A stretch of 64,000 nt of DNA from Candidatus Omnitrophota bacterium (GTDB taxonomy: Bacteria; Omnitrophota; Gorgyraeia; Duberdicusellales; 4484-171). Under the pieces are notes generated by a model. It saw only the letters and a list, made by a program, of their open reading frames with translations, had not been told where the DNA came from and did not search any database. Where the stretch lies: contig JAIPGM010000004.1 of assembly GCA_021735655.1 (NCBI GenBank), positions 64,001 through 128,000 of the forward strand. The letters are read 5' to 3'. This document shows, piece by piece, positions 211-52,029 of the stretch (position 1 is the first letter of the stretch; every line of letters begins with the position of its first letter). The translations under genes were made by a program, and so were the position numbers.

Positions 211-669
211 TTACTCTACTTCGGAAAAGCCAACAGGACAACTTGTTCCGATATGAATATTTGGGGCAGGAGTGTTTACAGAATTAGATCTACAAAGAAG
301 ACCGTCCTCGTCAATATAATAAGTTTTAGCTTGAGCTAAATTCTGCGGTGTGGCCGTAGCGTAGAAATCAATGTAAGTATTAGGAACCGCTTTAATAATA
401 TATTCCTGCTTTATGCCGCTAGCTAAAGAAACGTCAATATAGGGAGGCTGGGCAGAAGCTAACTCCTGTAAAGTTGCATATTCCGGGTTAGTTGCCCGCC
501 ACTGCACTTCAGCAGAACAAACAATGCGAAGAAGATTCGCCGAAATAGCTGCTCGGGCAGACATCCGCGAACGCAATAAATTAGGTATAGCCAAAGCTGC
601 CAAGACAGATATTATGGTTACAACTATCATAAGCTCCATGAGAGTTATGGCCTTTTTTAATTTTTCCAT
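211..669 (-). CDS. type IV pilin-like protein (prepilin-type N-terminal methylation domain), paralog of the pilin at 3328-3777
   Basis: N-terminus KAITLMELMIVVTIISVLAALAIPN is a class III signal / N-methylation motif. C-terminal YIDEDGLLCRSN...C region and Cys pair are shared with the second pilin. Confidence 0.8.
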   Translation of the reverse strand: MEKLKKAITLMELMIVVTIISVLAALAIPNLLRSRMSARAAISANLLRIVCSAEVQWRATNPEYATLQELASAQPPYIDVSLASGIKQEYIIKAVPNTYIDFYATATPQNLAQAKTYYIDEDGLLCRSNSVNTPAPNIHIGTSCPVGFSEVE

Positions 670-3203
670 TTTATCTTAAAAGCATAAAGGTTAGCTTTAT
701 CTAACGCTATAAACGGTTCAAAGTAATCAAGAGTCTTTGCTTTTGTAAAATAAAGCTTAGCAAGCAAGCTCTCGCCTAAAGCTTTATTCGAAACTCCGAT
801 ACATTTCCACTGACCGTTATCCTTAAAAAAGAAACCACCAGAATTAAATCGCATTGGCTGGCTCATTTTAGATTCATTATAGGTCAAGTTGTCGCCATCA
901 AAAATAAAAGTAAAACTAAGCTCTTTGAATTTTTTTTCCGGCTGTTGAAACATCGTAGCCCGAGAACTATTCAGAGCTAAAACTATGCCATTGTCAAAAT
1001 AAACAGTTCCTGAATCCTCCCTACCTGCCGCCAAATAAAGCGGAAATGTCCACTTCTCAGAAACTACCTCGTTTACCTCTCGGCCAATTCTAGAAAACAT
1101 TACCTCTTCGTAAAGAAGTTCTGCTTCTGACTGCTTTAAACCAAACACCCGAAAAAGATTATTAATCACTTCCAACTTCGGCAGATCTTGATGCTTGATT
1201 ATATAAACTTTGGCAAAATTCCAATTACCTAAAAAAGAAATGGCTGAAATTTTATAGATCATGGTCTCATCAATAAACAAATAGGCTGGTGCCGGAATTT
1301 TAACAAAAATTACATCTTTTATTTTCTTAGCTAATCCTTTAGGTATTTTGTACTCTTTAAAAATAGCCTCGATATTTTTTTCTTCAGATCTCAATATCTT
1401 ATTAAGAAAAACAATTGAGGAAAAGTCGTCACCAAGGAAAGAATTAATTTGATCAAAAAGTGCGTCTGAAGAATTATTGATCATACGTAAAATTCGTACA
1501 GCTTCCTCTTCGTTACCAGCCAAGAAAACCCTCGCCATCCAATAAGTAATCGGTGCATCTTGAATTTGTGGGTCGACTAAGGTACGTCGATTAGCTATCT
1601 CTTTAAACCAGTTGCCATAATCCCACCAACTATTAATTACGCTATTCTCAGGTGTTTTTTCCTTTATTTGGATCATAAGATCATACCAACCATCATTAAG
1701 TATTGGAAACTGTATACTGGCTTGAGAAAAGCTTCTTCGCACCGGAATTGAAACTACAAGGCAAATTAAACAAACCGCACTCAAAATAAGGCCACTTCTA
1801 ACCTTATGGCTACTAACGCCTCTTACCCAATTCGGAAGTAACCGCCAGACATCGCCCAAGCTAACACTTAAAAAAATACCTAAAGGCACAAAAAGGAATT
1901 GAGTAAAACGCAACCCTTTTAGGCTGGCAAAAAACATAACAAAGGTCCAACAGCTAAGAATCAATACTATATCTGCCCGCTTGCCTCTTTTCTCTCGCAA
2001 ATATGTCCAAAGCAAACCAAACAAAGACAACATAAATATAGCCCAACCGCCAGTATATACCGGAATACTTGTAAAGCTTCCTTGCTTTAGCTCTGACACC
2101 GTATATAAAACTGAGGGCCAAATCGAGAAAGAAAGAGAGTTGCCCAATCTTAAATTGCTAGCTAAAGAACCATAAAGAAAAGAAAAAGGTTCAACCTTTG
2201 CAATAAGTAAACAAAAAATTACACTCCCCGATAAGAAAACAGCCAGAGAAACTAGATAGGGTGCATTTTTTTTCTTCAGGGTATCTCTATCTTTAAAATG
2301 TAAACAAAAATTATTAGCCAAGGTCGCAAGAAAAAATATAACGATTACCGCGAAAATAAACCACCAACCAACCCAGCTAAAAGCATATAATCCTAAAAGC
2401 AATGAAGCTAATAAAGAGTACTTAACGATTTGTATAAAAGTTTTGCTTTTTAGCCCTATACCAAGAAACCAAACTATCAACAAAGGAAATAAAACATTAA
2501 ATACATCCTGGTCAAACCAACCAGCAGAACTACGATGAATAAACACCGGAGAAAGACCAATAAAGATAATCGCAAATATTCCGGAAATGTTCGAAAAGAA
2601 ATAACGACAGAATAGGTAAAGAACAATACAAAACACAAAGGTAAGGAAAACCGGCAAATAAAAAACAAATTTCTCCAAAGACAGGTTGGGGAAAATAAAT
2701 GAAACTGCCCTATATAAATAGGCTGAAAAATAATAAAGAAACCTCTCAGGTGGAACTAACCCTCCCTGGGGGGCAAGCATAAACTTATCATAGATCTTGC
2801 CGTCTACTATCTTATTTCCCGGATAACCATTTTCTAAGGTAAGCCTAGTAAAACGTTTTCGACAATAAGGATCAACTTCAAGTAAGTAAGTCTGACCACT
2901 ATCATCTTGATATTGTGACTTTAGCCGCTCGTATTCCTTATTAACTCGCAGTTTAAAGCCTTTAGAATTCTTTCTGCCCTCTTTGACTACCTGCTTAGCA
3001 ATTTTTTCCTTTATCAAAGAGTTATAGCCAGGATACTGCTTTTGGGTAAATTCTCGAGCCTGAGAAAGCATCCGATCCTCTATATTAAGATGGGCTCTTT
3101 TCTTAAGTTGGGGAAAGTTGGCCGGAAATAAACGTAGGTAGACATTTAGCCCCAATACAGTTGCGAGGATTAAAAAAATGGTTACTTTTTTTAGCTTATC
3201 CAT
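657..3203 (-). CDS. oligosaccharyltransferase of the STT3/AglB/PglB family (N-glycosylation OST-like), 848 aa polytopic membrane protein
   Basis: More than 10 predicted TM helices followed by a soluble C-terminal domain containing NSWWDYGNWF (WWDYG hallmark motif). First-loop LEVDPYCRKR resembles the E-x-DPY..YR loop-1 motif of STT3/AglB. The domain order (TM core then WWDYG domain) matches OSTs. Confidence 0.7.
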   Translation of the reverse strand: MDKLKKVTIFLILATVLGLNVYLRLFPANFPQLKKRAHLNIEDRMLSQAREFTQKQYPGYNSLIKEKIAKQVVKEGRKNSKGFKLRVNKEYERLKSQYQDDSGQTYLLEVDPYCRKRFTRLTLENGYPGNKIVDGKIYDKFMLAPQGGLVPPERFLYYFSAYLYRAVSFIFPNLSLEKFVFYLPVFLTFVFCIVLYLFCRYFFSNISGIFAIIFIGLSPVFIHRSSAGWFDQDVFNVLFPLLIVWFLGIGLKSKTFIQIVKYSLLASLLLGLYAFSWVGWWFIFAVIVIFFLATLANNFCLHFKDRDTLKKKNAPYLVSLAVFLSGSVIFCLLIAKVEPFSFLYGSLASNLRLGNSLSFSIWPSVLYTVSELKQGSFTSIPVYTGGWAIFMLSLFGLLWTYLREKRGKRADIVLILSCWTFVMFFASLKGLRFTQFLFVPLGIFLSVSLGDVWRLLPNWVRGVSSHKVRSGLILSAVCLICLVVSIPVRRSFSQASIQFPILNDGWYDLMIQIKEKTPENSVINSWWDYGNWFKEIANRRTLVDPQIQDAPITYWMARVFLAGNEEEAVRILRMINNSSDALFDQINSFLGDDFSSIVFLNKILRSEEKNIEAIFKEYKIPKGLAKKIKDVIFVKIPAPAYLFIDETMIYKISAISFLGNWNFAKVYIIKHQDLPKLEVINNLFRVFGLKQSEAELLYEEVMFSRIGREVNEVVSEKWTFPLYLAAGREDSGTVYFDNGIVLALNSSRATMFQQPEKKFKELSFTFIFDGDNLTYNESKMSQPMRFNSGGFFFKDNGQWKCIGVSNKALGESLLAKLYFTKAKTLDYFEPFIALDKANLYAFKIKWKN

Positions 3204-3269: not shown

Positions 3270-3306
3270 CGTAAAAATAATAAGGCGGTGGGAATCCCAC
3301 CGCCTT
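3270..3306 (-). terminator. intrinsic terminator downstream of the major pilin gene
   Basis: Stem GGCGGTGGG-aatc-CCCACCGCC at 3284-3304, followed on the minus strand by ATTATTTTTAC. Confidence 0.6.
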
Positions 3307-3327: not shown

Positions 3328-3777
3328 TTACTGCATTTCAGCATAACCAGATGGACAAGCATTCGTACCTTCATGAGCTGCGGCAGCAGTGCCAACAGCA
3401 GTAGATCTACATAGAATTCCATCTTCATCTATATAGAAAGAATGACCTTGTGCAGCAGTATTAACTGCTCTAGCTGCAAAAGTCCCATTAGTGTTGTCGG
3501 TAACAACTGAAAAAGTATATCCCTGTTTAGTTCCACCAGCCAAAGTTGTATCAATATAGGGTGGATTCTCACTGCCTAAAGTTGCCAAGGCAGCATAACC
3601 AGGATTAGTTGCTCGATATTGAATCTCAGCGGCAGCAACTGTATGAGCGGCTGCAGCTGCAGCAGCTTCTTGGGCTGACAAACGAGCCCTCAAAAGATTG
3701 GGTATAGCTATCGCCGCTAAAAGAGCAATGATAGCTACAACGATCATAATTTCAACAAGAGTAAAACCTTTCTTCAT
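3328..3777 (-). CDS. type IV pilin (likely major pilin)
   Basis: MKKGFTLVEIMIVVAIIALLAAIAIPN is a canonical prepilin leader plus N-methyl-Phe motif. C-terminal Cys pair present. Strong SD GGAGGTG 6 nt upstream of ATG. Own near-consensus promoter and terminator make it monocistronic. Confidence 0.9.
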   Translation of the reverse strand: MKKGFTLVEIMIVVAIIALLAAIAIPNLLRARLSAQEAAAAAAAHTVAAAEIQYRATNPGYAALATLGSENPPYIDTTLAGGTKQGYTFSVVTDNTNGTFAARAVNTAAQGHSFYIDEDGILCRSTAVGTAAAAHEGTNACPSGYAEMQ

Positions 3778-3976: not shown

Positions 3977-5191
3977 TCAATGAACTCCGCCAATATATTG
4001 GGTAATTTTGATTATTGGCAAAAATAAAGAAACTACAATGCCACCAACGACTATTCCCAAAAAGCCAATAACTATAGGCTCGATTAAACTTGATAACCCA
4101 GCAACCATAGCATCAGTCTGCTCTTCATAAAATTGAGCTATCTTAGACAACATCTCCTCCAGCCTTCCGCTTTTTTCACCTACCGAAATCATCCTGGTAA
4201 CCATTGGAGGGAAAACTCCGGTTTTTTCTAAAGGAAAAGAAATCGGCTGTCCTTCTTGAATCGCTGTCCGGGACTCCATAACTGCCTCTTCAATAACAAC
4301 ATTTCCTGAGGTCTTGGCTACAATCTCCAAACACTTTAATATCGGAACTCCGCTACGAACCAAAGTAGAAAATGTCCGGGAAAATTTAGCAATCGCTAAC
4401 TTTCTAGCTAAATTTCCAAATACCGGAAGCCGTAAAATAAATTTATGGAAGTTGCGCTTGCCTTTTGGTGTTTTGATATAACGAGTAAAAAGCATGCCGC
4501 CGCCGCCTAAAATAATCAGTAAGCCAAGGATTGATGTTGGCTTTCGGGCCAAATCCGAAAAACTTATCAAAATTCTAGTAGGCAAAGGTAAAACCCCGCC
4601 AAGAGCAGAAAAAATCTCTTTAAAGGTAGGGATTACCTTAAAGATTAAAAACGAAGTTATGGCTATCGCCATAAGAACAATGATTACCGGATAATAAAGA
4701 GCCGAAATCACTTTCTTCCTTAAAGCACTGCTTTTTTCTAAGTAAAATGAAACCCGATCTAAAATCTCCGGCAAATTCCCAGAAGCTTCCGCTGCTTCAA
4801 CCATGCTTAAATAAATATCAGGAAAAACATCCTTATGCCCAGAAAGGCTGGCTGAAAGAGATGTTCCTTCTTTAACCTCGCGCAAAATAGCCCAGATAAC
4901 TTCCTTAAAATAAGCCTGCTCGGTTTGTTCGCCTAGAATGCCCAAACACTCAACTACCGGAATTCCGCTTTCAATTAAAGTAGTGAATTGACGCGAAAAA
5001 ATTACTAAATCATCGGTTTTTATCTTGCCTTTTCTTTTTTTCCTAGCCTTTTCCTTAGTCTCTTCAATTGAAAAAATAATACTCTCTTGGCCATGAAAAT
5101 GCTCAATAAGCTTTTGTTTAGACTCAGCCTCAATAACCCCCTTGGTTGTTTTTCCTTCCTTGTCCTTAACGATATATGAAAATAACTTCAT
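3977..5191 (-). CDS. pilC: type IV pilus / T2SS inner-membrane platform protein (GspF/PilC family)
   Basis: 404 aa, two T2SS-F repeats, 3 TM segments; sits immediately downstream of the PilB ATPases. Confidence 0.85.
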   Translation of the reverse strand: MKLFSYIVKDKEGKTTKGVIEAESKQKLIEHFHGQESIIFSIEETKEKARKKRKGKIKTDDLVIFSRQFTTLIESGIPVVECLGILGEQTEQAYFKEVIWAILREVKEGTSLSASLSGHKDVFPDIYLSMVEAAEASGNLPEILDRVSFYLEKSSALRKKVISALYYPVIIVLMAIAITSFLIFKVIPTFKEIFSALGGVLPLPTRILISFSDLARKPTSILGLLIILGGGGMLFTRYIKTPKGKRNFHKFILRLPVFGNLARKLAIAKFSRTFSTLVRSGVPILKCLEIVAKTSGNVVIEEAVMESRTAIQEGQPISFPLEKTGVFPPMVTRMISVGEKSGRLEEMLSKIAQFYEEQTDAMVAGLSSLIEPIVIGFLGIVVGGIVVSLFLPIIKITQYIGGVH

Positions 5192-5192
5192 C

Positions 5193-6914
5193 TCACTCCG
5201 AGATTACCCGAATAACTTCCTCTGCCGAAGTTACCCCTTCGCTACATTTTAAAAAACCATCTTCGGCCAAAGATTGGTAACCCTTAAATTCTCGAGCGTA
5301 CTGGATAATCGTTTCCTCAGTTGCTAATTCAATAATCATCTCTCTTATTTTATCATCTAAAAGAATAATTTCCAGTATTGCTACTCTACCTCTATAACCG
5401 CTGTGAGCGCAGTGAGGACAGCCCTTGGCTCGATAAATCTTTTTTGGCTCGTTGTTCCCCATTATTTTACTACTTAATCCAAACCCCAAACGCTTCAATA
5501 AATCCTTATCCGGGATATATCCTTCCTTACATTTAGGACAAAGCTTACGCACTAAACGCTGAGCAGTAAGGGCAACTAACGATGAAGCTAACAGGAATGG
5601 CTCTGTACCCATATCGCGCAGACGAGCTATTGCTCCCACTGCGCTATTGGTATGAAGAGTAGAAAGTATGGTCTCGCCGGTTAAAGAAGCTTTAATCGCT
5701 GTGTCGGCAGTCTCAGCATCTCTGATTTCACCAACCATAATTACATCCGGTGATTGACGCAAAACCGACCGTAAACCAGCAGAAAAAGTTAAGCCGATTT
5801 CAGCATTAACTTGAATTTGAGTTATACCTTCTAAATGATACTCAACCGGCTCTTCAATAGTTATAATATTTTTATCAGTCGAGTTAATCTGATTAATGAT
5901 TGAATAAAGAGTTGTTGATTTACCGCTTCCAGTTGGCCCAGTAACTAACATTATTCCAAAGGGAGCTTTGATTGCCTCTTCAAACAAAGCCAGCGGCCCG
6001 GGCGAAAACCCTAGTTTTTTTAACCCTATCGATAAGCTCTCTCTATCGAGCACCCGGAGAACAAACTTCTCGCCAAAGTGGGTAGGTAAACTAGAAACTC
6101 TAAAATCTATTTCCCGAGACTCAAATTTAACCCGAAATCTACCGTCTTGAGGAAGCCGCGACTCAGTAATGTCTAGAGATGAAATGATCTTCAAGCGAGC
6201 AATTACGGCTTGCTGGCTGGTTTTAGGAAAACTAAACTCATCGGCCAAGGATCCATCTACTCGATAACGAATTAATAATTTATCTTCACAAGGCTCAATA
6301 TGGATATCTGATGCCCGCTTCTTTAAGGCATTATAAATAATAACATCAATTGCTCTCACGACCGGAGGATGCTTGCTTTCTGAAATTGAACTCTCTAGAT
6401 CTTGTTTAGACTCTTGATGCAACAATCCTTCGCCAACCGAATCAAGAGATACATCGCTACTAAGGGTTTCGGAAATATGTTCAGCCGACTTGTATAAAAA
6501 ATTTATGGCTCTACTTATATCCTTCTCACGAGAAAGAACCAAATCAACCTTTTCGGCATTGGTAATAATCTTTATGTCGTCATGAGTAATAACATCTAAA
6601 GGATTGGCTGTGGCCAAAGTCAGAACATTGCCGATCTTGCATAAAGGAAGAACCTTATGCTTAATTGCTATATCTTTAGGTAATAGCTCTTGATTCTTGT
6701 AAGGTAGTTTATATTTTTTTAAATCAAGAAAAGGGATCTTAAGTTCTTTGGAAAACATCAATAAGAGCTCTTCTTCGCTGATAAGCCCGCTCTCAATCAA
6801 AAGGCTCCTTAAATCAGCATAGGTACGAGCTCGTTTGGCAATATCGATAAGGACCTTCTTGTCACATTTTTTGTCCTCTTGAATGTACTTTATTATCTTC
6901 TCTTTTATGGTCAT
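5193..6914 (-). CDS. pilB: type IV pilus assembly ATPase (GspE/PilB family) with N-terminal GSPII_E_N/MshEN-like domain
   Basis: Walker A GPTGSGKST, Walker B DVIMVGEIRD, His box STLHTNSA, tetracysteine CPKC...CPHC; 573 aa. Confidence 0.9.
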   Translation of the reverse strand: MTIKEKIIKYIQEDKKCDKKVLIDIAKRARTYADLRSLLIESGLISEEELLLMFSKELKIPFLDLKKYKLPYKNQELLPKDIAIKHKVLPLCKIGNVLTLATANPLDVITHDDIKIITNAEKVDLVLSREKDISRAINFLYKSAEHISETLSSDVSLDSVGEGLLHQESKQDLESSISESKHPPVVRAIDVIIYNALKKRASDIHIEPCEDKLLIRYRVDGSLADEFSFPKTSQQAVIARLKIISSLDITESRLPQDGRFRVKFESREIDFRVSSLPTHFGEKFVLRVLDRESLSIGLKKLGFSPGPLALFEEAIKAPFGIMLVTGPTGSGKSTTLYSIINQINSTDKNIITIEEPVEYHLEGITQIQVNAEIGLTFSAGLRSVLRQSPDVIMVGEIRDAETADTAIKASLTGETILSTLHTNSAVGAIARLRDMGTEPFLLASSLVALTAQRLVRKLCPKCKEGYIPDKDLLKRLGFGLSSKIMGNNEPKKIYRAKGCPHCAHSGYRGRVAILEIILLDDKIREMIIELATEETIIQYAREFKGYQSLAEDGFLKCSEGVTSAEEVIRVISE

Positions 6915-6915
6915 C

Positions 6916-8619
6916 TTATTTTAATGGTTCATCTGGCGCAGTAACTTTAAGTACTTCTTCTAAAGTAGTAATTCCTTTTTCGACTTTCAAAATTCCATCC
7001 TGGCGCAAAGTACGCATACCTAGGTTACGGGCTTTTTTCTTAATGATACTTTCTGAAGCCGAAGAGTTTACTAAATTTTTTATTTGTTGATCAACGTGCA
7101 GATACTCACAAAGGGCAACTCTTCCCTTATAGCCAGTATTCTGGCAATTTCTACAGCCTTTTGATTTATAAATTAAAACTTCTTTATTAATAAGATATCG
7201 CTCGCGAACCGAATCAGATAATTCAAATTCCTCTTTACACTTAGGACACAACATTCGCACTAAACGCTGAGTGAGCACCCCAACCAATGTCGAAGAAAGC
7301 AAAAATGGCTCAACTCCCATATTAATAAGACGAGTGATTGAACCTGCGCTGGTCGTAGTATGAAGTGTGGAAAGAACTAAGTGCCCGGTTAAAGCTGACT
7401 TTATGGCCATGTCAGCAGTGTCAGCATCTCTGACCTCACCGATCATTATTATGTCCGGATCCTGACGCAATATTGAACGTAAACAGGCAGAAAAAGTCAA
7501 ATGAATCGAAGGATTAATACTGGTTTGGTTGATCCCTTTTAATTGGTATTCTATCGGATCTTCTACGGTAACTATGTTCTTCTCCGGTGCGTAAACATGT
7601 TTAATCACCGAATAAAGGCTGGTGGTCTTACCGGCCCCAGTAGGACCACAAACCAAAAGAAGACCGTGAGACTTAAGACTATCTTCCCGTAACTGTTTTA
7701 AAACATCTTCTTCAAACCCCAAAAGATCCAAATTAAGTAAAGCAGTTGCCTTATCTAAAACTCTAATCGCGACTTTTTCTCCAACACTAGTAGGAAGAAC
7801 TGAAACTCGAAAATCAACATTTTTATTTGAAATTCTGCTCCGAAATCTTCCTTCTTGAGGCAAACGGTGTTCGGCAATGTTTAAATTACACATTACCTTT
7901 ATCCGTGATATAGCAAAAGGATGAATTTTTTTTGAAAAGGTATCGATTTCTTGCAAAATTCCGTCAATCCGAAATCGAATCCGACTTACGTTTTCTAAGG
8001 GTTCTATCAGAATATCTGAAGCGGCCTCTTCAACTGCCTTAGTTAAAAAAGAATTGGTAAACTTTATTACCGGAGCCTCTTCAATTGAACGGACGATTTC
8101 TTCTTGAGTTACTTCCTTTTTGACCTTTTTTACAAACTCTAAGCTTTCGGCATGCTGCCCCTTAATAATATCCTCAATCGAAACCATATGGACCTGAGAA
8201 TAATGCATTGAGATGGCTTCTTTTATTTCTGAAAGCGGGGCAATTATCGGATTTACTTCACACTTAGTAATTTTTTTAATATCGTCAATAACTAAAATAT
8301 CTAAAGGATCACCCATGGCCAAGGTTAAGGTGTTGCCAATCTTGCCGATTGGTAAAACCTTATGGTCTCGGGCGACTCTTTCCGGAACTAAAGATATGAT
8401 CTCCTTGGGAATATTAAGATTAAGGATTCGAACCGGTGGGATTGAAAGATAGCTAGATAGTAAATCGAGAAGATCTGGTTCTTTTATGTAGCCTAACTGC
8501 ATAAGCTGCTCAACTAAAGAACCGCCCTTCTCCTTGTGGACGACTAAGACTTTATCTAAATCCTGTTTAGTTAAAAGTCCTTTTTCTAATATGTAATCGG
8601 TAAATTTTTTACTCTTCAT
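6916..8619 (-). CDS. second GspE/PilB-family secretion ATPase paralog with N-terminal GSPII_E_N domain
   Basis: Walker A GPTGAGKTT, DIIMIGEVRD, TLHTTTS, CPKC...CRNC; 567 aa. Tandem to pilB with a 1-nt spacer. Confidence 0.85.
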   Translation of the reverse strand: MKSKKFTDYILEKGLLTKQDLDKVLVVHKEKGGSLVEQLMQLGYIKEPDLLDLLSSYLSIPPVRILNLNIPKEIISLVPERVARDHKVLPIGKIGNTLTLAMGDPLDILVIDDIKKITKCEVNPIIAPLSEIKEAISMHYSQVHMVSIEDIIKGQHAESLEFVKKVKKEVTQEEIVRSIEEAPVIKFTNSFLTKAVEEAASDILIEPLENVSRIRFRIDGILQEIDTFSKKIHPFAISRIKVMCNLNIAEHRLPQEGRFRSRISNKNVDFRVSVLPTSVGEKVAIRVLDKATALLNLDLLGFEEDVLKQLREDSLKSHGLLLVCGPTGAGKTTSLYSVIKHVYAPEKNIVTVEDPIEYQLKGINQTSINPSIHLTFSACLRSILRQDPDIIMIGEVRDADTADMAIKSALTGHLVLSTLHTTTSAGSITRLINMGVEPFLLSSTLVGVLTQRLVRMLCPKCKEEFELSDSVRERYLINKEVLIYKSKGCRNCQNTGYKGRVALCEYLHVDQQIKNLVNSSASESIIKKKARNLGMRTLRQDGILKVEKGITTLEEVLKVTAPDEPLK

Positions 8620-9060
8620 TTAAGGGTAGAATCTACCTATACCACTACGTATGTCTGAAGGGGTACTAACAAATATTTGGATATCGCAATGGGTCAGGTC
8701 TTCTAAATCTTCAATGGCATGAATATTAAGAGGATTGGCCATAGCTAAAGTCAAAGTGTTCCCTATTTTATCTATTGGAAGTAAACAATAATGACCGCAA
8801 ACGTTTTTGGGGACTAAAGAAACTACCTCTTCGGAAACTTGATAGTTCTCTAAAGGAAGATAGGGATAACCAAACTGTAAAGACAAGCAATAGGCAATAT
8901 CTTCCTCTTTGGCAAAGCCTAAACTTACAATGACTTCACCGATTAAACCTCCTTGACGTTTCTGGCTTGTTATAGCTTCCTTCAGTTGATCGGGAGTAAT
9001 TACCCCTCTTTCTGCTAAAATCTGCCCCAAAGGCTTATCTATTTTTTTGTGAGATTTCAT
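8620..9060 (-). CDS. standalone MshEN-type (T2SS-E N-terminal) domain protein, putative c-di-GMP receptor
   Basis: 146 aa with no ATPase domain. Carries two tandem 24-aa motifs PLGQILAERGVITPDQLKEAITSQ and LIGEVIVSLGFAKEEDIAYCLSLQ separated by the 5-aa spacer KRQGG. This matches the MshEN c-di-GMP-binding motif RLGxxLLxxGLLxxxxLxxxLxxQ x2. Confidence 0.65.
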   Translation of the reverse strand: MKSHKKIDKPLGQILAERGVITPDQLKEAITSQKRQGGLIGEVIVSLGFAKEEDIAYCLSLQFGYPYLPLENYQVSEEVVSLVPKNVCGHYCLLPIDKIGNTLTLAMANPLNIHAIEDLEDLTHCDIQIFVSTPSDIRSGIGRFYP

Positions 9061-10380
9061 TTAATTATCTTGCTTATTTTTCTTAAGCTTGGTGAATTTA
9101 ATCAACTCTTTGGCAGTTGTCCCGTCCAATGGGCTTGCTGCCACCGAAAAAGAAAGCTTAACTTTTCCCTGAGTTATTACCTTAAGAGCGGCTTCTGCCT
9201 TCTTCGCTGCCTCTTGAGAATGACGCTTATTGCTTTCTATAATAATGGCACCTAAGGTTTGGGGGCCTATTCTTCCGGCGATATCAATCGGACGCAAACT
9301 TCTCTTAAAGCCATGGGCGATTTTTTTAAGTATCTTCTCAGATTCAATCAAACCAAATTCTTTCTGATATTTATCAGGATCTAACAAACTAACCGAGATA
9401 AAGCCACAGGGACGCTGATAAATGCTTGAGCGCCTTATTTCTTCATCAAGCCTTCTAATAATTACCTTTTCATTATATAGATCAGTCAAATCGTCAAGCA
9501 CCTCTAAATCTTCAATCTTTGAAGAAAGACGTCGATGCTCCCAAATAAGAGTTACATTTTGAGAAAATAGGTTCAAAACATCTATTTCGTCTTTGCTAAA
9601 ATTATACTCATCCTGATTATTGCCGACTCCGACGATACCAACAACTATGCCTTTAGCAACAACCGGGACTAAAGCCATATTCACAAGCCCCAATTCTTTA
9701 GCCCACCCCAGATAAGGCTTAGGTTTATTGCTAGAATCAACAACTGACAGCTTCATCCTCTGAGGTAAATCACTATTACGATTTTCAATAAAAGAATCGA
9801 TAATCGGTATTTCTACTCCTAAAAAGGAAATTGGTTTTAGCTTACTTTGAGCATCATCTTTTAAGCTACAAAAACAAACATTAGTTTCCAAAATCTTCTT
9901 TAAATGCTCACTTAAAAACTTAATAATCTCTTCAGCCGGAGCATCCTTAGAAAATAAATCATTGGCCTGTAGAATAGCTGAGAGGACAAGAACTTTCTTA
10001 GTGACCTCTCGGTTGAGTTCTTCGGTTTTTTGAGTAAAGTCTTTTAATTCTTCAAACCCGCTTTTAACTTTATCCGAAAGTACGTTAATAACTGTCTCTA
10101 GGCTCTGGACTTCATCTGAAATTTCTGGAGCCTGTTCGCCAATATCTTCTAAAGCAGTCTTTGATTGTGTATATAGTCTAATAATTGATGAAAAAACCTC
10201 AAAAACAACTCGCCATCCCAAAATTACAACTAATAATAATGTCGTAGCTGCAAAAAAAGATATCTGGTATCCGAATAAATAGTAAAGAAGCACAATCAAC
10301 GGAATGAGAGAAACCAAAGCAATCGAAATCCAAATCCTTCTGGCTAGACTTAAATTAGTTATTCTATTTTTTGTTTTCAC
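9061..10380 (-). CDS. membrane protein with GAF-like domain and degenerate GGDEF domain retaining an RxxD I-site (PelD-like c-di-GMP receptor candidate)
   Basis: Two N-terminal TM helices and a coiled-coil. C-terminal domain reads DDLTDLYNEK...VSLLDPDKYQKEFG...SLRPIDIAGRIGPQTLGAII, i.e. the GGDEF fold with GGDEF replaced by GPQTL but RPID kept 5 residues upstream. Confidence 0.5.
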   Translation of the reverse strand: MKTKNRITNLSLARRIWISIALVSLIPLIVLLYYLFGYQISFFAATTLLLVVILGWRVVFEVFSSIIRLYTQSKTALEDIGEQAPEISDEVQSLETVINVLSDKVKSGFEELKDFTQKTEELNREVTKKVLVLSAILQANDLFSKDAPAEEIIKFLSEHLKKILETNVCFCSLKDDAQSKLKPISFLGVEIPIIDSFIENRNSDLPQRMKLSVVDSSNKPKPYLGWAKELGLVNMALVPVVAKGIVVGIVGVGNNQDEYNFSKDEIDVLNLFSQNVTLIWEHRRLSSKIEDLEVLDDLTDLYNEKVIIRRLDEEIRRSSIYQRPCGFISVSLLDPDKYQKEFGLIESEKILKKIAHGFKRSLRPIDIAGRIGPQTLGAIIIESNKRHSQEAAKKAEAALKVITQGKVKLSFSVAASPLDGTTAKELIKFTKLKKNKQDN

Positions 10381-10662
10381 TCTGCCCCCTCTTATAATAA
10401 TATAGTATTTATACGCTTACTACAAAATACTAACACCTTTCATTGCTAGTGTCAACTCGACTGAACCGAAAACATATTATATTTACTGTAATTTTAGACA
10501 AAACCGCTAGTTTAATTCAACTAAAGTAAGCCCCCTTTGGCTTCATGATCTTACCTCAGTTAAGAGGATAAATATTCTGAGCATCCCTCCAAGAAATAAA
10601 CTGAGCATCGGCATCTAAGCCCAAGGGCTCTATTGCCAATATGTCATCTTTACTGTATTTAT

Positions 10663-11532
10663 CTATTCAATATCTTGCCAAGACACTGTCTCCGAAGATG
10701 AGAACCCCAAATTAGCTAAAGCTGCACTTATCAGGTCAGGGTCATAAGCTAAATCGACACTGCCCTTAATGGTAGTATCTATACCGGCGCCGCTTTCAGC
10801 AAGAACTGACCCGCTGATAGCAACATTACCGGTAATTGAAAGTTCCCCGATAACATAAATTATACCTTCAAAATTTTCAGTTCCCGACATGTGAACGTCC
10901 CCTTCTATGACTAAAATCCCGCTGCCCTGTAAATTTCCTGCCGTTGTCAAAGTTACCCCCGGAGAAACCTCAACCCAGGTTATGCCGTCAACCGGCTCAC
11001 CAAAAGTGCTTTCATCGTAAAGGTGCGTGGCCATATTCTTTACTGATTCTTTACTATTTGCAAACAAATCCGAAAAATTTAAAACCGCTTGTTCATTGAA
11101 CGAATCCTCAGGAGTAATGGTATATGCCTGGCCTTTAATTACTAAATCACCTGTTGTCTCAATCGCGTATTGGAACTTGGAGGAATCAGGAGGATCTACT
11201 CTTACAATTGCGCGTAAAGACTTTTCGATTGTTGCCCCGGAAGATAAAGTAACTGTGCCGGTTGAGTCGATCTGATAATACCAATTACCTAACGCTTCTG
11301 TGGTTGCCGCATAACAATAGTTACTTTTCATACATCCAGATGTATTGTCGGGTAGATTACCCTTGCTCATTGCAATACCAGCCTCGGCCAGCCAAAAAGC
11401 TTCGACAGCCCCTACATATCTTGTGGTAAGCTTGTTCTCATTTATAGTTTTTAAAAAAAGTGCTGTCGATAGCATAATCATAATCAACATCATTAAAAGA
11501 CTAAGGATTAAAACACCGCCTCTTTTATTCAT
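10663..11532 (-). CDS. PilX-N-terminal-domain pilus assembly / minor pilin-like protein
   Basis: N-terminus MNKRGGVLILSLLMMLIMIMLSTALFL is the PilX_N pattern; repetitive beta-rich C-terminal region. Confidence 0.5.
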   Translation of the reverse strand: MNKRGGVLILSLLMMLIMIMLSTALFLKTINENKLTTRYVGAVEAFWLAEAGIAMSKGNLPDNTSGCMKSNYCYAATTEALGNWYYQIDSTGTVTLSSGATIEKSLRAIVRVDPPDSSKFQYAIETTGDLVIKGQAYTITPEDSFNEQAVLNFSDLFANSKESVKNMATHLYDESTFGEPVDGITWVEVSPGVTLTTAGNLQGSGILVIEGDVHMSGTENFEGIIYVIGELSITGNVAISGSVLAESGAGIDTTIKGSVDLAYDPDLISAALANLGFSSSETVSWQDIE

Positions 11533-12154
11533 TTCTTATTTTCACATCCAGTTCTAAGGTAATTGGAAGAAGGTCCCTCTCCCGAACCTGACTTTGGCCG
11601 GTGATCGCGACAACCATCCTCTTACTATTATTAAGATTATCTTTAAAATTATCCGTCGTTCTCGCGCCGCCAGTATCGATAGTATAAAAAGGCGGCTCTG
11701 TTATGCCTATAAACTCCCTGCTTTCTGTTGTATTGTTGCCGCTATCAATAACACTGCGCGTAATCTTACTTAAAGTATTATCGTAATCATACTCAATATA
11801 GTCCAGACTTAATATATAATTACCGGTAGTTGTATTTATCCCGTCAACCGTCCGAAATTTAATATACGAAGCAGAAGGGTTATTGTTGGCTATGTCCCAG
11901 CAAGGAGCCTGGCGGATATCTCTAACTATTAAATTCCCTATCGACCTTATCTTAGCCTGAAAATCTATTTTGGCAGTCATTACCGGAAAAACTGATTCTC
12001 CTGCTTGAAGAACTCTAACCACTGCAGTAGCAATAAGTGACAGCACCAGAGAAGCAATCAATATCTCCGTAAGGGTAAATGCTTTCTGCTTAGCGATGAA
12101 TGCATGTTGAGAGCTCAAAATATCTTGTTTTCTGCCTTTCAGACCAGCTAACAT
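11525..12154 (-). CDS. prepilin-type N-terminal cleavage/methylation domain protein (pseudopilin/minor pilin)
   Basis: KAFTLTEILIASLVLSLIATAVV motif. The listed start overlaps the upstream gene by 65 nt, so the true start is probably internal or an alternative codon. Confidence 0.6.
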   Translation of the reverse strand: MLAGLKGRKQDILSSQHAFIAKQKAFTLTEILIASLVLSLIATAVVRVLQAGESVFPVMTAKIDFQAKIRSIGNLIVRDIRQAPCWDIANNNPSASYIKFRTVDGINTTTGNYILSLDYIEYDYDNTLSKITRSVIDSGNNTTESREFIGITEPPFYTIDTGGARTTDNFKDNLNNSKRMVVAITGQSQVRERDLLPITLELDVKIRNE

Positions 12155-12497
12155 TTGCTATTACCTCCGTAAGCGACGTTTCTGTACCTGCCGCCTGAAC
12201 AGTAACATTCTCATCTATCAAATTATCAAACACCGGCGGAGAATAAACATCTATATCCCCATAAGATAAGGTCTTGATCTCCTCTAATACACATTGAGCA
12301 TCGTTAGCCGCAGCTACTAAGTTATTGCTTGATTCATTGAGAAAAGCGCAAGAAACAAAAGCCATAATCAACCCACTAGCAACTATCATTATAATAGCCG
12401 CAGCTATCATCACTTCCAATAGAGTAAACCCAGCCCGCTTAGAAAAACTCTTACGCATAGCTTTATTTATTTGGCCTTTTTCCTTAAAATTCCTCAT
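12090..12497 (-). CDS. prepilin-type N-terminal cleavage/methylation domain protein (GspG/PilV-like pseudopilin)
   Basis: KRAGFTLLEVMIAAAIIMIVASGL motif; 135 aa. Confidence 0.65.
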   Translation of the reverse strand: MRNFKEKGQINKAMRKSFSKRAGFTLLEVMIAAAIIMIVASGLIMAFVSCAFLNESSNNLVAAANDAQCVLEEIKTLSYGDIDVYSPPVFDNLIDENVTVQAAGTETSLTEVIANVSWSERQKTRYFELSTCIHR

Positions 12498-20559: not shown

Positions 20560-21882
20560 TTAAGTTCTATTCTTATTAGTCACATGGTGATTAAACTGAG
20601 TATTAACGCACTTATAAATTAAAGCCAAAATTAGCCAAAATAGGAATGTCGTCGCTGGAATATGAAAATTAAACTCAAAAAAGCTATGCAACAAAACCCC
20701 AATGAGACCGCAGGCGCCGCTTAAGGTAATTATCTTTACAAAACTGTCCTGCCTTTGACTAATCTTTTTTAAAATGCTTTTAAAAATCGTAACTATAAAC
20801 CCCAGATAAAAAAAAGCTCCGATAAGTCCGGTTTCAACAACCATCTGGAGATGGTCGTTATGAAGATGGTAAAAAAATTTACTCCATGCGAATTCTTGAT
20901 AGTAGGGAAAAATATATGAAAAATTTCCTAGACCTATACCGAATAAAGGAAAATCTTTTATAATAGCCAAAGAATTAGCCGCTATCTTAAGACGACCCAA
21001 AAATCCCTCTTCAATCATAATAAATCGCGCTTTTATTGGGGCTAAGCCTGGAATTAGAACTAATCCCAAACCGAAAATTAATACCAAGGGAATAATCCAG
21101 CCGCTACTCTTTATTAAAAATTTTCGTTTAGAAAATATCCCCATCAATAACAAGGAAAAAATTAAACTCAGCGATCCGGCTCGCGAAAGAGAAATAAATA
21201 CACTGGCTGAAATCAAAACTGCTAGGAATCCAAAAATAATTTTTTTAGCCTTGTCTCGGTAATACAAAGCATGGCCGACAGCCAAAGGCGCAACCATAAC
21301 CATATAGCCGGCAAAATGGTTACGATTACCGAAAGTGCTAAAAGCACCAGTTATCTCAGCATTAATTATAAAATACTTTTTTATGACCCCATAAAATGAA
21401 AGAATCGCTCCCCAAATGATTATCGTTAAAAACAGACGCTCGAATTGAGAGCGTTTCTTTATAGTATTAAGTGTAACCAAAAATAAAATCAAAAATGATA
21501 ACAGATTTATGCTTTCTGCTTTAGTTGCTGCTCTATAAAAAGATAACGATAAAAATCCCGACTGACTATCAAGCGGCATATAGTTATGCTTAAAAAAATA
21601 GGTTTTTGATGAAATAAATTTTATTGCAGCTTGTGGAAGCGGTAAAATCTGGAAAATAACAATAGCGATAAAAACAACTAAAAGATAGGTCTGCCGCGGA
21701 TAAACAATTTGCAACTGACCAGGAAAACTCCTCGCCAGATATAAAGCTAAAATAACTAGTATAGTTATCTGAACGACAAAAAGAAATGTTCCTTTAACTG
21801 AACCGTAACCGAGGGGAACAAAAACTATAAGAAAAACCAAGATAGCTTCAAATAGCCAATCCGGAATTACTTTTTTTATCAT
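20560..21882 (-). CDS. O-antigen ligase / Wzy_C-domain polysaccharide polymerase-like membrane protein
   Basis: About 12 TM helices; motif FFYHLHNDHLQMVVETGLIGAFFY matches the Wzy_C periplasmic-loop signature. Confidence 0.7.
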   Translation of the reverse strand: MIKKVIPDWLFEAILVFLIVFVPLGYGSVKGTFLFVVQITILVILALYLARSFPGQLQIVYPRQTYLLVVFIAIVIFQILPLPQAAIKFISSKTYFFKHNYMPLDSQSGFLSLSFYRAATKAESINLLSFLILFLVTLNTIKKRSQFERLFLTIIIWGAILSFYGVIKKYFIINAEITGAFSTFGNRNHFAGYMVMVAPLAVGHALYYRDKAKKIIFGFLAVLISASVFISLSRAGSLSLIFSLLLMGIFSKRKFLIKSSGWIIPLVLIFGLGLVLIPGLAPIKARFIMIEEGFLGRLKIAANSLAIIKDFPLFGIGLGNFSYIFPYYQEFAWSKFFYHLHNDHLQMVVETGLIGAFFYLGFIVTIFKSILKKISQRQDSFVKIITLSGACGLIGVLLHSFFEFNFHIPATTFLFWLILALIYKCVNTQFNHHVTNKNRT

Positions 21883-23720
21883 TTTTTAGTTTCCGGGGAG
21901 TAAGAATAATGATAAAAATAGTAACCACCCTTACTTTGCTCAATACCATTCAAAACAGCGCCGATAATTTTTGTTTTATTGCCTAATATTTTCCTAGCTT
22001 CAGCTATATGCTTAAGTGGAGTAACTCCGGCTCGAATCACAAAAACTAACCCATCGCATTTATCCGCTAAAAGAATAGCCTCAGATACACTCAAAACCGG
22101 GGTGGAATCAATAATAACTCTTTTATACTTTTTCTCTACCTCGCGCAATATATCTTTTAAAGTGGCTGAGCCCAAAAGCTCTGTGGGGTTAGGCGTGTAA
22201 TGACCACAACCAATAAAATCAAGATTCGGGACATCAGTTGACACTATTACTTCCTCTAAAGAAGCTACGCCAGCCAGCAGGCTACTTAAGCCAATTTCGG
22301 AAGAAGGACTAAAAGATTTCGCTAAGTGCCCCTTGCGCATATCAGCATCGATAAGTAAAGTTGAGTCGCCGGTTTGTGCAAAAGCTATTGCTAAATTAGC
22401 AGAAGTAAAACTTTTTCCCTCCTGCGGAATAGTACTACCAATGACTATAGTTCGTAGAGGCTTATCCTCCGGAAAAGAAAAAATTAAGGCTGTTCTTAAA
22501 TTCTTAAAGTTTTCAGCAACTATAGAAAAAGGCTGGGTGTGAGACAATAAATTTAGTTTTTCTCGGGTTTGCTCTTCCTTTGCCAAGTTGATTGCTCCAA
22601 GAAAGGGGAGCTTAGCGTAAAATTCTACATCGTCCGATGTCTTCAAGGTAGAATCGGTATATTCTAGAAAAAAACAAAAAGATAAGCTTAGAAAAATGCT
22701 CATCGCTAAAGCTAGAATGATATCCCGCTTCGGCCGAGGCCAAACCGGAGACAAAGGAACATCAGCTTCATCAACTATGCGTATATTAGAAATAGAAAGT
22801 TCTTTAGAAACATCTAATTCCTTAGCCCGCTGCAGAAGGTTTTCATATATCGATTTATTCGAATCTACTCTTCGTTTAAGAATTCTGTACTCAGCCGAAA
22901 TATCTTGAATGGCCATGAATTTTTCAGTCTCACTTTTAATCGTTAAAATAACCGTATTTAGCTCCTCATTCAAAGCAAGTATTTCAGGATGTTTTCCTTT
23001 GTATTTCTTAGATAAGGAAGCCACTTCATTTTCCAAGTCAGATTTTTGTTTTTCGAGGTCACGCAAAATACTTTTATCATACTCTTTCTCCATGTCTGGA
23101 ATATTAACGATCTTATTTTTACGAACAAAATTATTTAACTCTTTGTCCGATTGTTGTATTTTCTTTAATGCTTCTTCAAGCTGTCCTTCCAACCAAGAAA
23201 CACCATATTTGGCAATCCCAGTCCTTCTTTCTATATCCTGATAAATAAATTCCCTAGCCCAAGTGTTAGCGATACTGGTTATTTTTAAACGGTCCCTACC
23301 GGTAACCGTAATGATAACTAAATTGCTCATCCGCTCAGGCTTAACATCAACCCAAGACAAAAGAACTCTAGCCGGATTTCTCTTCCCGCCAATTTCAGGA
23401 TCATTAGCAAGATCCAACTTATCAATAACCCGTTCAGCCAAAGAAAGTGATTTCAACAAACCATACTGGCTATAATAATACTCTCTATCTCTGACTTCGC
23501 CCTGATAAGCATACCCACCCTTTTCAGACATAATCTGCGGGTTTTGCTTTTCAATATGCATTGTCATCTCTGCCCGATATTTTTTAGGTTGAGTGAAATC
23601 ATAAAAAGCAACTAGGCTTACGGTTATCAAGATAAAAGACACAACTAACCATTTACGCTTCAAAAAAATTTCCCAATAATCCTTAATGCCTAACACTTTT
23701 ACTTCTGCGGGTGGTATCAT
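21879..23720 (-). CDS. polysaccharide biosynthesis tyrosine autokinase (Wzc/EpsG type: Wzz domain + CpsD/BY-kinase ATPase)
   Basis: Two TM helices flank a periplasmic coiled-coil domain. Walker A IPQEGKSFTSANLA. Tyr-rich C-terminus GGYYFYHYSYSP. 4-nt overlap with the downstream gene. Confidence 0.85.
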   Translation of the reverse strand: MIPPAEVKVLGIKDYWEIFLKRKWLVVSFILITVSLVAFYDFTQPKKYRAEMTMHIEKQNPQIMSEKGGYAYQGEVRDREYYYSQYGLLKSLSLAERVIDKLDLANDPEIGGKRNPARVLLSWVDVKPERMSNLVIITVTGRDRLKITSIANTWAREFIYQDIERRTGIAKYGVSWLEGQLEEALKKIQQSDKELNNFVRKNKIVNIPDMEKEYDKSILRDLEKQKSDLENEVASLSKKYKGKHPEILALNEELNTVILTIKSETEKFMAIQDISAEYRILKRRVDSNKSIYENLLQRAKELDVSKELSISNIRIVDEADVPLSPVWPRPKRDIILALAMSIFLSLSFCFFLEYTDSTLKTSDDVEFYAKLPFLGAINLAKEEQTREKLNLLSHTQPFSIVAENFKNLRTALIFSFPEDKPLRTIVIGSTIPQEGKSFTSANLAIAFAQTGDSTLLIDADMRKGHLAKSFSPSSEIGLSSLLAGVASLEEVIVSTDVPNLDFIGCGHYTPNPTELLGSATLKDILREVEKKYKRVIIDSTPVLSVSEAILLADKCDGLVFVIRAGVTPLKHIAEARKILGNKTKIIGAVLNGIEQSKGGYYFYHYSYSPETKK

Positions 23721-23721: not shown

Positions 23722-24954
23722 TTAAAAATCCATTGATAGCTTTAAAGACACTATATTATTATCATGCTCAGCCAAGGTTGAGTCTGAACCTATTTTTTCA
23801 AATTCATAATTACCGATTATTTTTAGCTGTTTTGTTAAAGTGTACTCTGAGCTTAACAAAATATTGTATTGTTTATCTTGTCTCCCAGATTCATATTCAT
23901 CAAAATTAAAAGAGACGTTAGATATTAATTTTAGCTTTCGGTTAAACGGCGGAAAGTATCGAAACCCGAAACCGAAGTTAGAATAAGAATCTAGCTCATC
24001 AGTGCTAATAGAAGACGCTCCCACTCCCTGTTCAGCGTTAACATTAAGAATGAATCTTCGAGAAAGTAAATAATCTAAATTTATATTCACAGCATTGGAA
24101 GATACGTGCTCTTCTGGATAGTGCCCTTCCTCATAACCAAATTTTATTAGCCCCTTAATCTTTGAAAATATATCCCCTCTTACTCCGATCCAATATTCAT
24201 CGCGATCCCGGTCTACACTCCCACCTTTATAGAAATCTTTCCATTCATGATCGTACTCCAAAAAAGCATAGGTTTTAGAAGCAATCCTTAAAGACCCAGT
24301 AAAACTAACTGTATCGGCTTTATAGCTATGAGTTGTTCGAAAATCGCCTTCTTCGTAGGCCTTATCGCGATGTAGATAGGCCATCTCCCAACGAAACCGA
24401 TTCCAATTTACATCCAGGCTTAGTTTTGGATAATGCTCTAAATAATCCACAAACCCTTCGTCAGTAGTAAGGCTCAAGTCGGTCAAAGTAGCCTGTTCCT
24501 TTATGAATCGATAGTCTAGAGTTAAAGCAAACATACCCAGGCCATGGCTAACCAAAAAACTAAAATAGGGATTTTCAACGTTATGCTCGTCATGTTCAGC
24601 ATATTGTTTAACCAAAATCCCGGTATCAACAAAAATATTAGTTTTTTTCTGACTGCTTAGATCTCCATATCTTACCCCCGGGCTAATCTCAGTAACAAAA
24701 TCTCCCTCAATATCTTCAGTGGTAAGAAAAATATTATCGTTAATAGTCGTTTTAAGCTCAACGTAAGGAGTAAGATTGTCTAAAAATTTTCTTATTGCGC
24801 TAAGTCTTCCCCCCTGAGCTTCCTGAACCAAGACATCAAAGCTATTCTGATCCGGCTCGGTCTCGGCGTAGGCTCCAACTGACCCCACCCCAATCAAACA
24901 GACAGCAGCTATAATTATCACTCTTAATAACAAAGTTCTCTGCTGATATTGCAT
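23722..24954 (-). CDS. outer-membrane beta-barrel protein (polysaccharide-export associated?)
   Basis: Signal peptide, alternating amphipathic beta strands, C-terminal Phe (LSMDF). Confidence 0.5.
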   Translation of the reverse strand: MQYQQRTLLLRVIIIAAVCLIGVGSVGAYAETEPDQNSFDVLVQEAQGGRLSAIRKFLDNLTPYVELKTTINDNIFLTTEDIEGDFVTEISPGVRYGDLSSQKKTNIFVDTGILVKQYAEHDEHNVENPYFSFLVSHGLGMFALTLDYRFIKEQATLTDLSLTTDEGFVDYLEHYPKLSLDVNWNRFRWEMAYLHRDKAYEEGDFRTTHSYKADTVSFTGSLRIASKTYAFLEYDHEWKDFYKGGSVDRDRDEYWIGVRGDIFSKIKGLIKFGYEEGHYPEEHVSSNAVNINLDYLLSRRFILNVNAEQGVGASSISTDELDSYSNFGFGFRYFPPFNRKLKLISNVSFNFDEYESGRQDKQYNILLSSEYTLTKQLKIIGNYEFEKIGSDSTLAEHDNNIVSLKLSMDF

Positions 24955-30321: not shown

Positions 30322-30336
30322 ATAAATAACTTAAAA

Positions 30337-52027: not shown

Positions 52028-52029
52028 TC

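Follow-up and report, generated by a model that had tools for sequence, protein, structure and literature searches.

The question raised by this locus is what a protein named as a cyclase would do at the head of a type IVa pilus motor operon once its catalytic residues have gone. The window analyzed here, i.e., the whole stretch of 64,000 nt, comes from a Candidatus Omnitrophota bacterium (assembly GCA_021735655.1, contig JAIPGM010000004.1, positions 64,001 to 128,000), has ~38% G+C, and carries nearly all of its genes on the minus strand. One open reading frame on that strand (9061-10380) encodes a 439-aa protein from a GTG start, with a Shine-Dalgarno-like GAGGGGG a few bases upstream, and this protein is 100% identical to a metagenome-assembled genome (MAG) protein held at NCBI under the name “diguanylate cyclase [Candidatus Omnitrophica bacterium]”. 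Our proposal is that this protein is anchored in the membrane and serves the type IVa pilus motor of Omnitrophota as a dedicated regulatory subunit, with a dead GGDEF domain that in the window's clade would bind cyclic di-GMP (c-di-GMP) at its I-site, a reading that we regard as having about an even chance of being right.

The degenerate GGDEF domain and its protein

We placed the motifs of the GGDEF domain using three independent alignments, i.e., phmmer to DgcR (6zxm), the family profile to PleD, 6d9m, 3ign, and 5euh, and BLASTP to a canonical Omnitrophota GAF-GGDEF paralogue, and these were concordant and gap-free across the GGDEF core. All three put GPQTL in the GG(D/E)EF slot and RPID exactly at the RxxD I-site, five residues upstream, so that both of these assignments in an earlier note made from the sequence alone hold. 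The residues equivalent to the two metal-binding Asp of the DxD motif are S331 and L333, those equivalent to the canonical N and D are Q339 and K340, and G343-L344...S347-E348 correspond to the canonical GH..GD; R370 is equivalent to PleD R366, and IAGRI forms the canonical five-residue spacer between the I-site and the GGEEF slot. Among 119 close relatives, slots 372-375 are hypervariable (column entropy 1.85-2.77 bits) and the metal-Asp slot 331 is occupied by E, K, Q, R, or S, and the catalytic residues are likewise absent from a distant clade of relatives. The features of an active diguanylate cyclase, i.e., the GG(D/E)EF loop, the two acidic residues that bind metal, and the guanine-binding N and D, are therefore missing. 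Judged from these alignments, no member of the family has a working cyclase site, and a normal diguanylate cyclase is excluded. We also considered the window's own “D.D” (in LLDPD) as a metal site, which the same note had listed as a “VS..D.D” landmark of the fold, and rejected it as coincidental, since it is unconserved (the family consensus at this position is xIxNY) and off-register from DxD in ungapped alignments.

The architecture of the protein is TM-TM-HAMP-like-GAF-GGDEF (TM, transmembrane helix), based on the combined evidence of TM prediction, an AlphaFold2 (AF2) model, Pfam, profile searches, and the HAMP calls of distant homologues, and we consider the fold and domain assignments secure. 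A hydropathy scan identified two TM helices joined by a loop of ~4-6 residues and preceded by an N-terminus with a charge of +5; by the positive-inside rule, both the N-terminus and the C-terminal part of the protein would be cytoplasmic. The AF2 model, built from 91 homologues and with a mean predicted local distance difference test score (pLDDT) of 80.7, contains helices at residues 12-35, 42-80, and 90-144, and alpha/beta domains at 149-292 and 296-438. Of the two alpha/beta domains, the second is a GGDEF domain both by fold and by profile (Pfam PF00990 / TIGR00254), passing the curated Pfam cut-off in the window protein with 45.5 bits (E=9e-12), and the family profile matched solved GGDEF domains down to 9e-15. 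The Pfam models GAF_2 and GAF fall just under their cut-offs for the single window sequence; the family profile matched solved GAF domains at 1.6e-7 and 7e-7, and the fold and these matches together identify a GAF domain. Between TM2 and GAF, the window protein carries an AS2-like DE(V)xxLxxxINxL motif that we read from the sequence. The Pfam HAMP model is under threshold in this protein and scores 35.7-45.7 bits at aa 67-122 of distant full-length homologues. The linker and signalling helix (aa 64-144) is the best-conserved segment of the protein, with a mean column entropy of 1.30 bits among the close relatives. These results confirm the order of TM helices, GAF-like middle, and GGDEF fold that had been proposed.

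The motor operon and its stand-alone MshEN protein

As noted earlier from the window alone, the dead-GGDEF gene sits between pilin-type genes and a pilus ATPase block, and our examination of its neighbors places it between the minor pilin genes (10663-12497) and a MshEN/PilB/PilB/PilC block (3977-9060). From the dead-GGDEF gene through the MshEN gene, both PilB genes, and the PilC gene, the intergenic gaps are 0-1 nt. Upstream, a leader of 280 nt separates the dead-GGDEF gene from the minor pilin genes and contains one promoter-like site; our promoter scan overall found sites to be no more numerous than in shuffled sequence, and this single site is therefore weak evidence. We considered whether the leader might hold a riboswitch for c-di-GMP, or an RNA element of another kind, and rejected this, as an Rfam gathering scan of the whole window returned one tRNA only. 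All coordinates are collected in Table 1.

Table 1. Features of the dead-GGDEF gene and the pilus motor operon (window positions, unless a locus is named)
Feature	Position (nt)	Strand	Remarks
Dead-GGDEF gene (TM-TM-HAMP-like-GAF-degenerate GGDEF), 439 aa	9061..10380	-	First gene of motor operon; TAA abuts next gene's ATG
TM helix 1 (~aa 14-36)	10273..10341	-	Hydropathy scan; AF2 helix 12-35
TM helix 2 (~aa 41-63)	10192..10260	-	Hydropathy scan; AF2 helix 42-80 runs on from membrane into linker
HAMP-like linker and long signalling helix (aa 64-144)	9949..10191	-	Includes DEVQSLExxINxLS; lowest-entropy segment
GAF domain (aa 145-292)	9505..9948	-	
Degenerate GGDEF domain (aa 293-439)	9064..9504	-	
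YQRPCG (aa 321-326)	9403..9420	-	Family signature at beta1 start; Y321-C325 in 115-117/119 close relatives
RPID (aa 363-366)	9283..9294	-	RxxD I-site position (3 alignments); canonical 5-residue spacer to GPQTL
GPQTL (aa 372-376)	9253..9267	-	Fills GG(D/E)EF slot (3 alignments)
ESNKR (aa 382-386)	9223..9237	-	E-x-N-K-R, beta3 end/alpha3 start; kept in close and distant clades
Promoter-like site, sigma-70-like TTGACA-17-TAGTAT with TG	10427..10455	-	~47 nt 5' of start codon; weak
Three minor pilin genes	10663..12497	-	PilX-like 10663-11532; N-methyl pilins 11525-12154 and 12090-12497
Stand-alone MshEN, 146 aa	8620..9060	-	53-residue c-di-GMP-binding motif at aa 10-62 (nt 8875-9033); NF053729 61.6 bits vs cut-off 38
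PilB/GspE-type ATPase 1	6916..8619	-	Degenerate MshEN c-di-GMP motif; NF053729 34.2 bits, below 38
PilB/GspE-type ATPase 2	5193..6914	-	MshEN N-domain without c-di-GMP motif; NF053729 no match
PilC/GspF platform protein	3977..5191	-	
Major-pilin-like gene	3328..3777	-	Strong terminator-like hairpin after it at 3284-3301
REC-HD-GYP genes of distant cassettes	L051 11453-12523; L055 13354-14418; L057 5355-6422		HDLGK and GKGYP present

The gene immediately downstream encodes a MshEN domain on its own, which aligns to the GSPII domains of Thermus PilF, the N-termini of Geobacter and Myxococcus PilB, and VcMshEN (5htl, 1.9e-16). It clears the cut-off of the NCBIfam model for the c-di-GMP motif (NF053729; Table 1), fits the relaxed 24-residue MshEN motif of Wang et al. 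(PMC5013675) in a tandem 24+5+24 layout, and so is predicted to be a c-di-GMP-binding MshEN domain. On inspection by eye, the Walker A and tetracysteine motifs are intact in both tandem PilB/GspE-type ATPases that follow. Neither ATPase reaches the equivalog cut-off for PilB or the one for GspE, and the window's cluster contains no PilT gene.

Our scan of GTDB species representatives identified 48 loci, all from Omnitrophota; several (L003, L005, L007, L009, L011, and others) are labelled “uncultured Planctomycetia” or “Methanosarcinales archaeon” and are probably mislabelled or mis-binned MAGs. As far as the contigs reach, the order dead-GGDEF, stand-alone MshEN, PilB, PilB, PilC, pilin(s) is kept in 48/48 loci, and the stand-alone MshEN gene adjoins the dead-GGDEF gene in every one (48/48), while the upstream flank varies between minor pilins and PadR-AccA-LysM/YkuD. 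The dead-GGDEF gene is thus translationally packed and strictly co-inherited with MshEN, two PilB ATPases, and PilC. Using the published relaxed motif as a regular expression with its first residue left free, we matched the stand-alone MshEN in 45 of 47 loci (39 of 47 in the tandem form), PilB1 in 0 of 45, and PilB2 in 0 of 43; alignments show that the MshEN N-domains of the PilB proteins have lost key Gly residues. The only well-preserved MshEN c-di-GMP motif in the cassette, as far as motif matching can tell, is that of the separate small protein. Across its top 120 homologues this protein shows 68-93% identity, and it is conserved well above the dead-GGDEF protein.

Some loci contain a single-domain response regulator gene just before the dead-GGDEF gene (L030 9591-9965, L053 4222-4614, and L054 487-879); it overlaps the dead-GGDEF gene in L053 and L054 and is absent from the window. 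We also considered whether the dead-GGDEF protein might anchor the motor in the membrane in place of PilM/PilN; a distant locus in which PilM and PilO follow the same cassette weakens this idea.

What the I-site face may do, and which readings survive

Part of the evidence for our proposal is the conservation of the I-site after the loss of catalysis. Within the close family, R363 is present in 108/119 members (91%), D366 in 119/119 (100%), and R370 in 119/119, and receptors of the PelD, PopA, CdgA, and SgmT class have their RxxD at this same distance, five residues, ahead of the GGDEF slot. In the window's clade, the I-site RxxD appears from this pattern to be under purifying selection. Two further conserved segments, YQRPC and ExNKR, accompany it: C325 is present in 117/119 close relatives, and in ExNKR, E382 is found in 117, N384 in 115, K385 in 104, and R386 in 117 of the same 119. 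The GGDEF domain has an established palm-fold topology. Combining that topology with the order of secondary structures in the AF2 model, rather than with coordinates, we infer that the beta1 start (YQRPC, 321-325), the beta2 start (RxxD, 363-366), and the beta3 end (ExNKR, 382-386) all come together at one end of the palm sheet. Because these segments share one sheet end, the most conserved residues of the family would cluster on the I-site face, which is the likely functional surface, for c-di-GMP or for a partner. As a separate observation, the family has conserved cysteines in a GAF CFC motif (Cys169 and Cys171, with C171 in 102/119) as well as Cys325 of YQRPC, the single most conserved residue of the superfamily, and a redox or metal role for them is possible.

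In the mechanism that we propose, c-di-GMP would be bound on the I-site face via R363 and D366, probably together with the basic residues R317, R323, K385, and R386, and the c-di-GMP state would be integrated with a signal from the membrane hairpin via HAMP and GAF. The output would reach the motor by protein contact with the MshEN protein and/or with PilB hexamers at the membrane, and the outcome would be gated pilus assembly. PelD, PopA, CdgA, and the FimX-PilZ-PilB relay offer comparable cases. We tie the module to c-di-GMP because of the stand-alone MshEN motif, the REC-HD-GYP genes of distant cassettes, and the canonical cyclases and PilZ proteins nearby. For example, L040 and L043 have canonical RxxD...RYGGEEF GAF-GGDEF paralogues in their vicinity (Pfam 168 bits), a 280-aa GGDEF protein lies near L007, and a PilZ protein lies near both L030 and L053.

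Our exhaustive profile search, which returned 356 clusters (at 50% identity) at E<=1e-30, also recovered a large set of distant relatives, full-length at 460-480 aa, in which HAMP, GAF, and GGDEF are all called with confidence; one distant cluster includes an NCBI member from Candidatus Omnitrophota. We compared positions between 20 representatives of the close clade and 112 of the distant clade. Most of these positions are conserved in both: C325 (20/20 close, 111/112 distant), K385 (12/20, with R in 7; 105/112), R370 (20/20; 104/112), R317 (20/20; 104/112), P324 (20/20; 103/112), E382 (20/20; 100/112), and R323 (19/20; 97/112). D366 is present in 19/20 close and 82/112 distant representatives, and R363 in 17/20 and 14/112, being mostly S, T, or G in the distant clade. 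Among eight distant relatives whose genomic context we examined, six (P0243, P0253, P0261, P0267, P0281, and P0319, 29-40% identity) have the same cassette, in which the stand-alone MshEN keeps its motif and the accompanying PilB proteins have none. A REC-HD-GYP gene with intact HD and GYP, a putative c-di-GMP phosphodiesterase, lies between the second PilB and PilC in 3/6 of these cassettes, and one cassette continues with a pilin gene, PilM, and PilO. We asked whether the loss of R363 tracks the HD-GYP gene of the operon and found this inconsistent, since L056 and L058 lack both. In the remaining two relatives (P0272 and P0299), a PilT-like ATPase is directly next in place of MshEN/PilB (L049 1570-2358 and L050 1590-2651), which suggests a paralogous pairing with the retraction motor. 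P0299 has a literal GGDEF pentapeptide, with the other catalytic residues absent.

Several of these observations weigh against our proposal. The sister clade, with the same architecture, has R363 left in only 14/112 representatives while C325, K385, R317, R323, E382, and R370 stand at 87-99%. Since R363 is mostly lost there, the canonical RxxD is not needed for the core function of the family, and the canonical I-site, by these counts, is not a defining or universal feature of the whole family; Arg363 in the window's clade could be a relic that has not yet decayed. The third I-site Arg (PleD R390, PelD R402) aligns to an unconserved residue, K394, in our protein. R386, conserved in 117/119 and one helical turn before K394, might stand in for it, as the fold topology would allow, but this is only an inference. 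The MshEN protein alone may also be the invariant c-di-GMP sensor of the module.

The alternative that survives best is a scaffold that transduces signals without binding c-di-GMP: the dead GGDEF would be only an interaction module that docks MshEN or PilB by its YQRPC/ExNKR face, the RxxD would be vestigial, HAMP and GAF would relay a membrane signal (such as pilin load or the state of PilC), and MshEN would be the sole c-di-GMP sensor. This is possible, though we think it rather unlikely. It accounts for R363 being gone in 98/112 distant representatives while the rest of the patch and the operon (6/8 examined) persist, for the MshEN motif being conserved in both clades and the MshEN protein being 68-93% identical across the phylum, and for the linker/HAMP being the most conserved segment. 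The conservation of R363 and D366 in the window's clade down to ~40% identity, where neighboring residues vary freely, argues instead for selection on the I-site pair. More speculatively, and in our view doubtful, c-di-GMP control of the motor could have moved from the PilB N-domains into two co-encoded trans subunits, i.e., MshEN and the HAMP-GAF-dead-GGDEF protein, whose nearly invariant YQRPC/ExNKR patch, with its invariant Cys on the I-site face, would be a new surface for a ligand or partner, distinct from RxxD. The two subunits would jointly choose which of the two PilB paralogues engages PilC, or PilT in the branch where a PilT-like ATPase gene comes next.

It is improbable that the protein senses GTP or another guanine nucleotide on the remnant of its active site, in the manner of FimX or Caulobacter PdeA with their degenerate GGDEF domains, with E348 and Q339 replacing the guanine-binding Asp and Asn. 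The residues concerned are indeed retained (E348, at the PleD D344 slot, in 117/119; Q339, at the N335 slot, in 87/119; R370, at the R366 slot, in 119/119), and the degenerate GGDEF of FimX is predicted to keep a weak affinity for GTP (review PMC11656802). Both metal acidic slots and the entire GGDEF loop are unconserved, however, so that the means to coordinate phosphate and Mg have not been kept. In 22 members slot 339 holds R, and E348 and R370 may simply have structural roles.

The earlier note had read the protein as following the design of PelD, and of that claim the general logic of a degenerate GGDEF with an I-site acting as a receptor stands as reasonable, while membership of the PelD family does not. 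A PelD orthologue, or a PelD-type gate for the exopolysaccharide (EPS) cluster at ~19.5-31 kb of the window, is very improbable. Like PelD, the protein has a membrane anchor, a cytoplasmic GAF and then a degenerate GGDEF with RxxD, and a gene inside the operon of the machine to be controlled, and an EPS cluster (Wzy, Wzz/tyrosine kinase, sugar transferases) does lie 10-20 kb off. Pfam PelD_GGDEF is unmatched in the window protein at E<=1, PelD does not appear among the sequence or fold matches of the dead-GGDEF family, and beyond common domain families we find no specific sequence or fold relationship between the two. There are no pel genes near the dead-GGDEF gene; its neighbors in the full Omnitrophota loci examined are MshEN, PilB, PilB, and PilC, and the synteny with MshEN and PilB holds in every full locus irrespective of the upstream genes, while the EPS cluster owns a HAMP-GGDDF protein. 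PelD has four TM helices and no HAMP, unlike the two TM helices and HAMP-like linker here. It also controls a glycosyltransferase complex (the Pel polysaccharide synthase), not a pilus motor, and the position that aligns with R402, the third Arg of its binding site, is not conserved in the window family. On sequence grounds the protein is not a PelD family member, and PelD may serve as a functional analogy for the window's clade only. As a precedent for the binding that we propose, the degenerate GGDEF of PelD binds c-di-GMP via RxxD in Pseudomonas aeruginosa and Bacillus cereus (PMC7112168).

An active diguanylate cyclase with an unconventional site that supplies c-di-GMP locally to the adjacent MshEN, as the database name implies, has in its favor that some AGDEF-type enzymes are active (PMC3974145), but is scarcely credible for a protein that lacks GG, the loop acidics, the metal Asp, N/D, and GH..GD, whose loop is hypervariable among orthologues, and that scores 45 bits against Pfam versus 168 bits for a true paralogue.

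Known systems, neighboring genes, and significance

One of the closest functional parallels to our proposal is the FimX-PilZ-PilB relay of Xanthomonas and Pseudomonas, in which the adaptor binds the N-terminal domain of PilB and promotes type IV pilus assembly (PMC11656802, PMC8389850): there, as in our proposal, a degenerate-GGDEF protein is a c-di-GMP receptor that works via a small adaptor on PilB. FimX is a soluble REC-PAS-GGDEF-EAL protein that binds c-di-GMP at its EAL domain and uses a PilZ adaptor, whereas the window protein is membrane-bound, has no EAL, and has as its putative adaptor a stand-alone MshEN with its own c-di-GMP motif. That 146-aa neighbor has the tandem 24+5+24 motif of VcMshEN and Thermus PilF (PMC5013675). 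In MshE, PilB, and PilF, the MshEN (GSPII) domain is fused to the ATPase, whereas here it is a separate conserved gene and the MshEN domains of the ATPases are degenerate. A further parallel is CdgA (Bd3125) of Bdellovibrio bacteriovorus, a degenerate-GGDEF (GVNEF) c-di-GMP receptor at the pilus-bearing invasive pole that speeds prey invasion and interacts with RomR and a TPR protein (PMC3983030). CdgA thus acts at the type IV pilus pole of a predator, and the homology that we established to it goes no further than the GGDEF domain. Omnitrophota, too, are regarded as predators or parasites, with type IVa pili in use (PMC10066038). By sequence and structure, the best matches are canonical GAF-GGDEF cyclases (Dcsbis PA2771, 4zmu, and the paralogues near L040 and L043), with the same GAF-GGDEF core and an ungapped alignment across the GGDEF domain. 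These differ in having RxxD, RYGGEEF, and all catalytic residues, and in lacking the YQRPC/ExNKR signature and the pilus-operon context.

Elsewhere in the window, an STT3/PglB/AglB-type oligosaccharyltransferase of 848 aa (657-3203, minus strand; Pfam STT3 2.4e-37) is encoded between the pilin genes at 211-669 and 3328-3777, an arrangement that also occurs in L001, L004, L026, L028, L031, L033, and L058. It is unusual for a pilus operon to include an enzyme of the STT3 type, because bacterial pilins are usually glycosylated by PglL/TfpO-type O-transferases; the pilin at 3328-3777 has one N-x-S/T sequon (N97) and that at 211-669 has none. Beside the EPS cluster, a 488-aa TM-HAMP-GGDEF-like protein (27893-29359, minus strand) has intact DxD, FND, and GD, with GGDDF for GG(D/E)EF and AATD in place of RxxD, and could be an active or specificity-shifted cyclase. 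The cluster has genes for Wzy_C (20560-21882), a Wzz/GNVR tyrosine kinase (21879-23720), a porin (23722-24954), and sugar transferases (29641-30978). In an 804-aa protein (46452-48866, minus strand), a spermidine-synthase-like domain is joined to an M28 peptidase domain at the C-terminus. Beyond it, a mobile/defence-like block on the minus strand (~49400-63800) contains a CoiA-like gene (49450-50307), a C5 DNA methylase (55558-56847), a YhcG/DUF1016 PDDEXK nuclease (57857-58957), and an NrS-1-type primase-polymerase-like gene (61445-63808), with several intervening open reading frames that have no Pfam match.

Type IVa pili are the main candidate host-attachment organelle in Omnitrophota, a phylum that is largely uncultured, ultra-small, and probably predatory or parasitic (PMC10066038). 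In full-text searches of the literature we came across no publication that connects GGDEF or MshEN proteins with the pili of Omnitrophota; neither that genomics paper nor a review of PilB cofactors (PMC11656802) mentions such a protein, and the former makes no mention of c-di-GMP, GGDEF, or PilB. The present analysis reveals a regulatory cassette that heads the pilus motor operon throughout the phylum and corrects a systematic mis-annotation, in which a dead enzyme is named “diguanylate cyclase” and the stand-alone MshEN is named “hypothetical” or “PilB”. The proteins are small enough for direct biochemistry without culturing the organism, and the RxxD that is kept in one clade and lost in its sister constitutes a natural experiment on the I-site face after the loss of catalysis.

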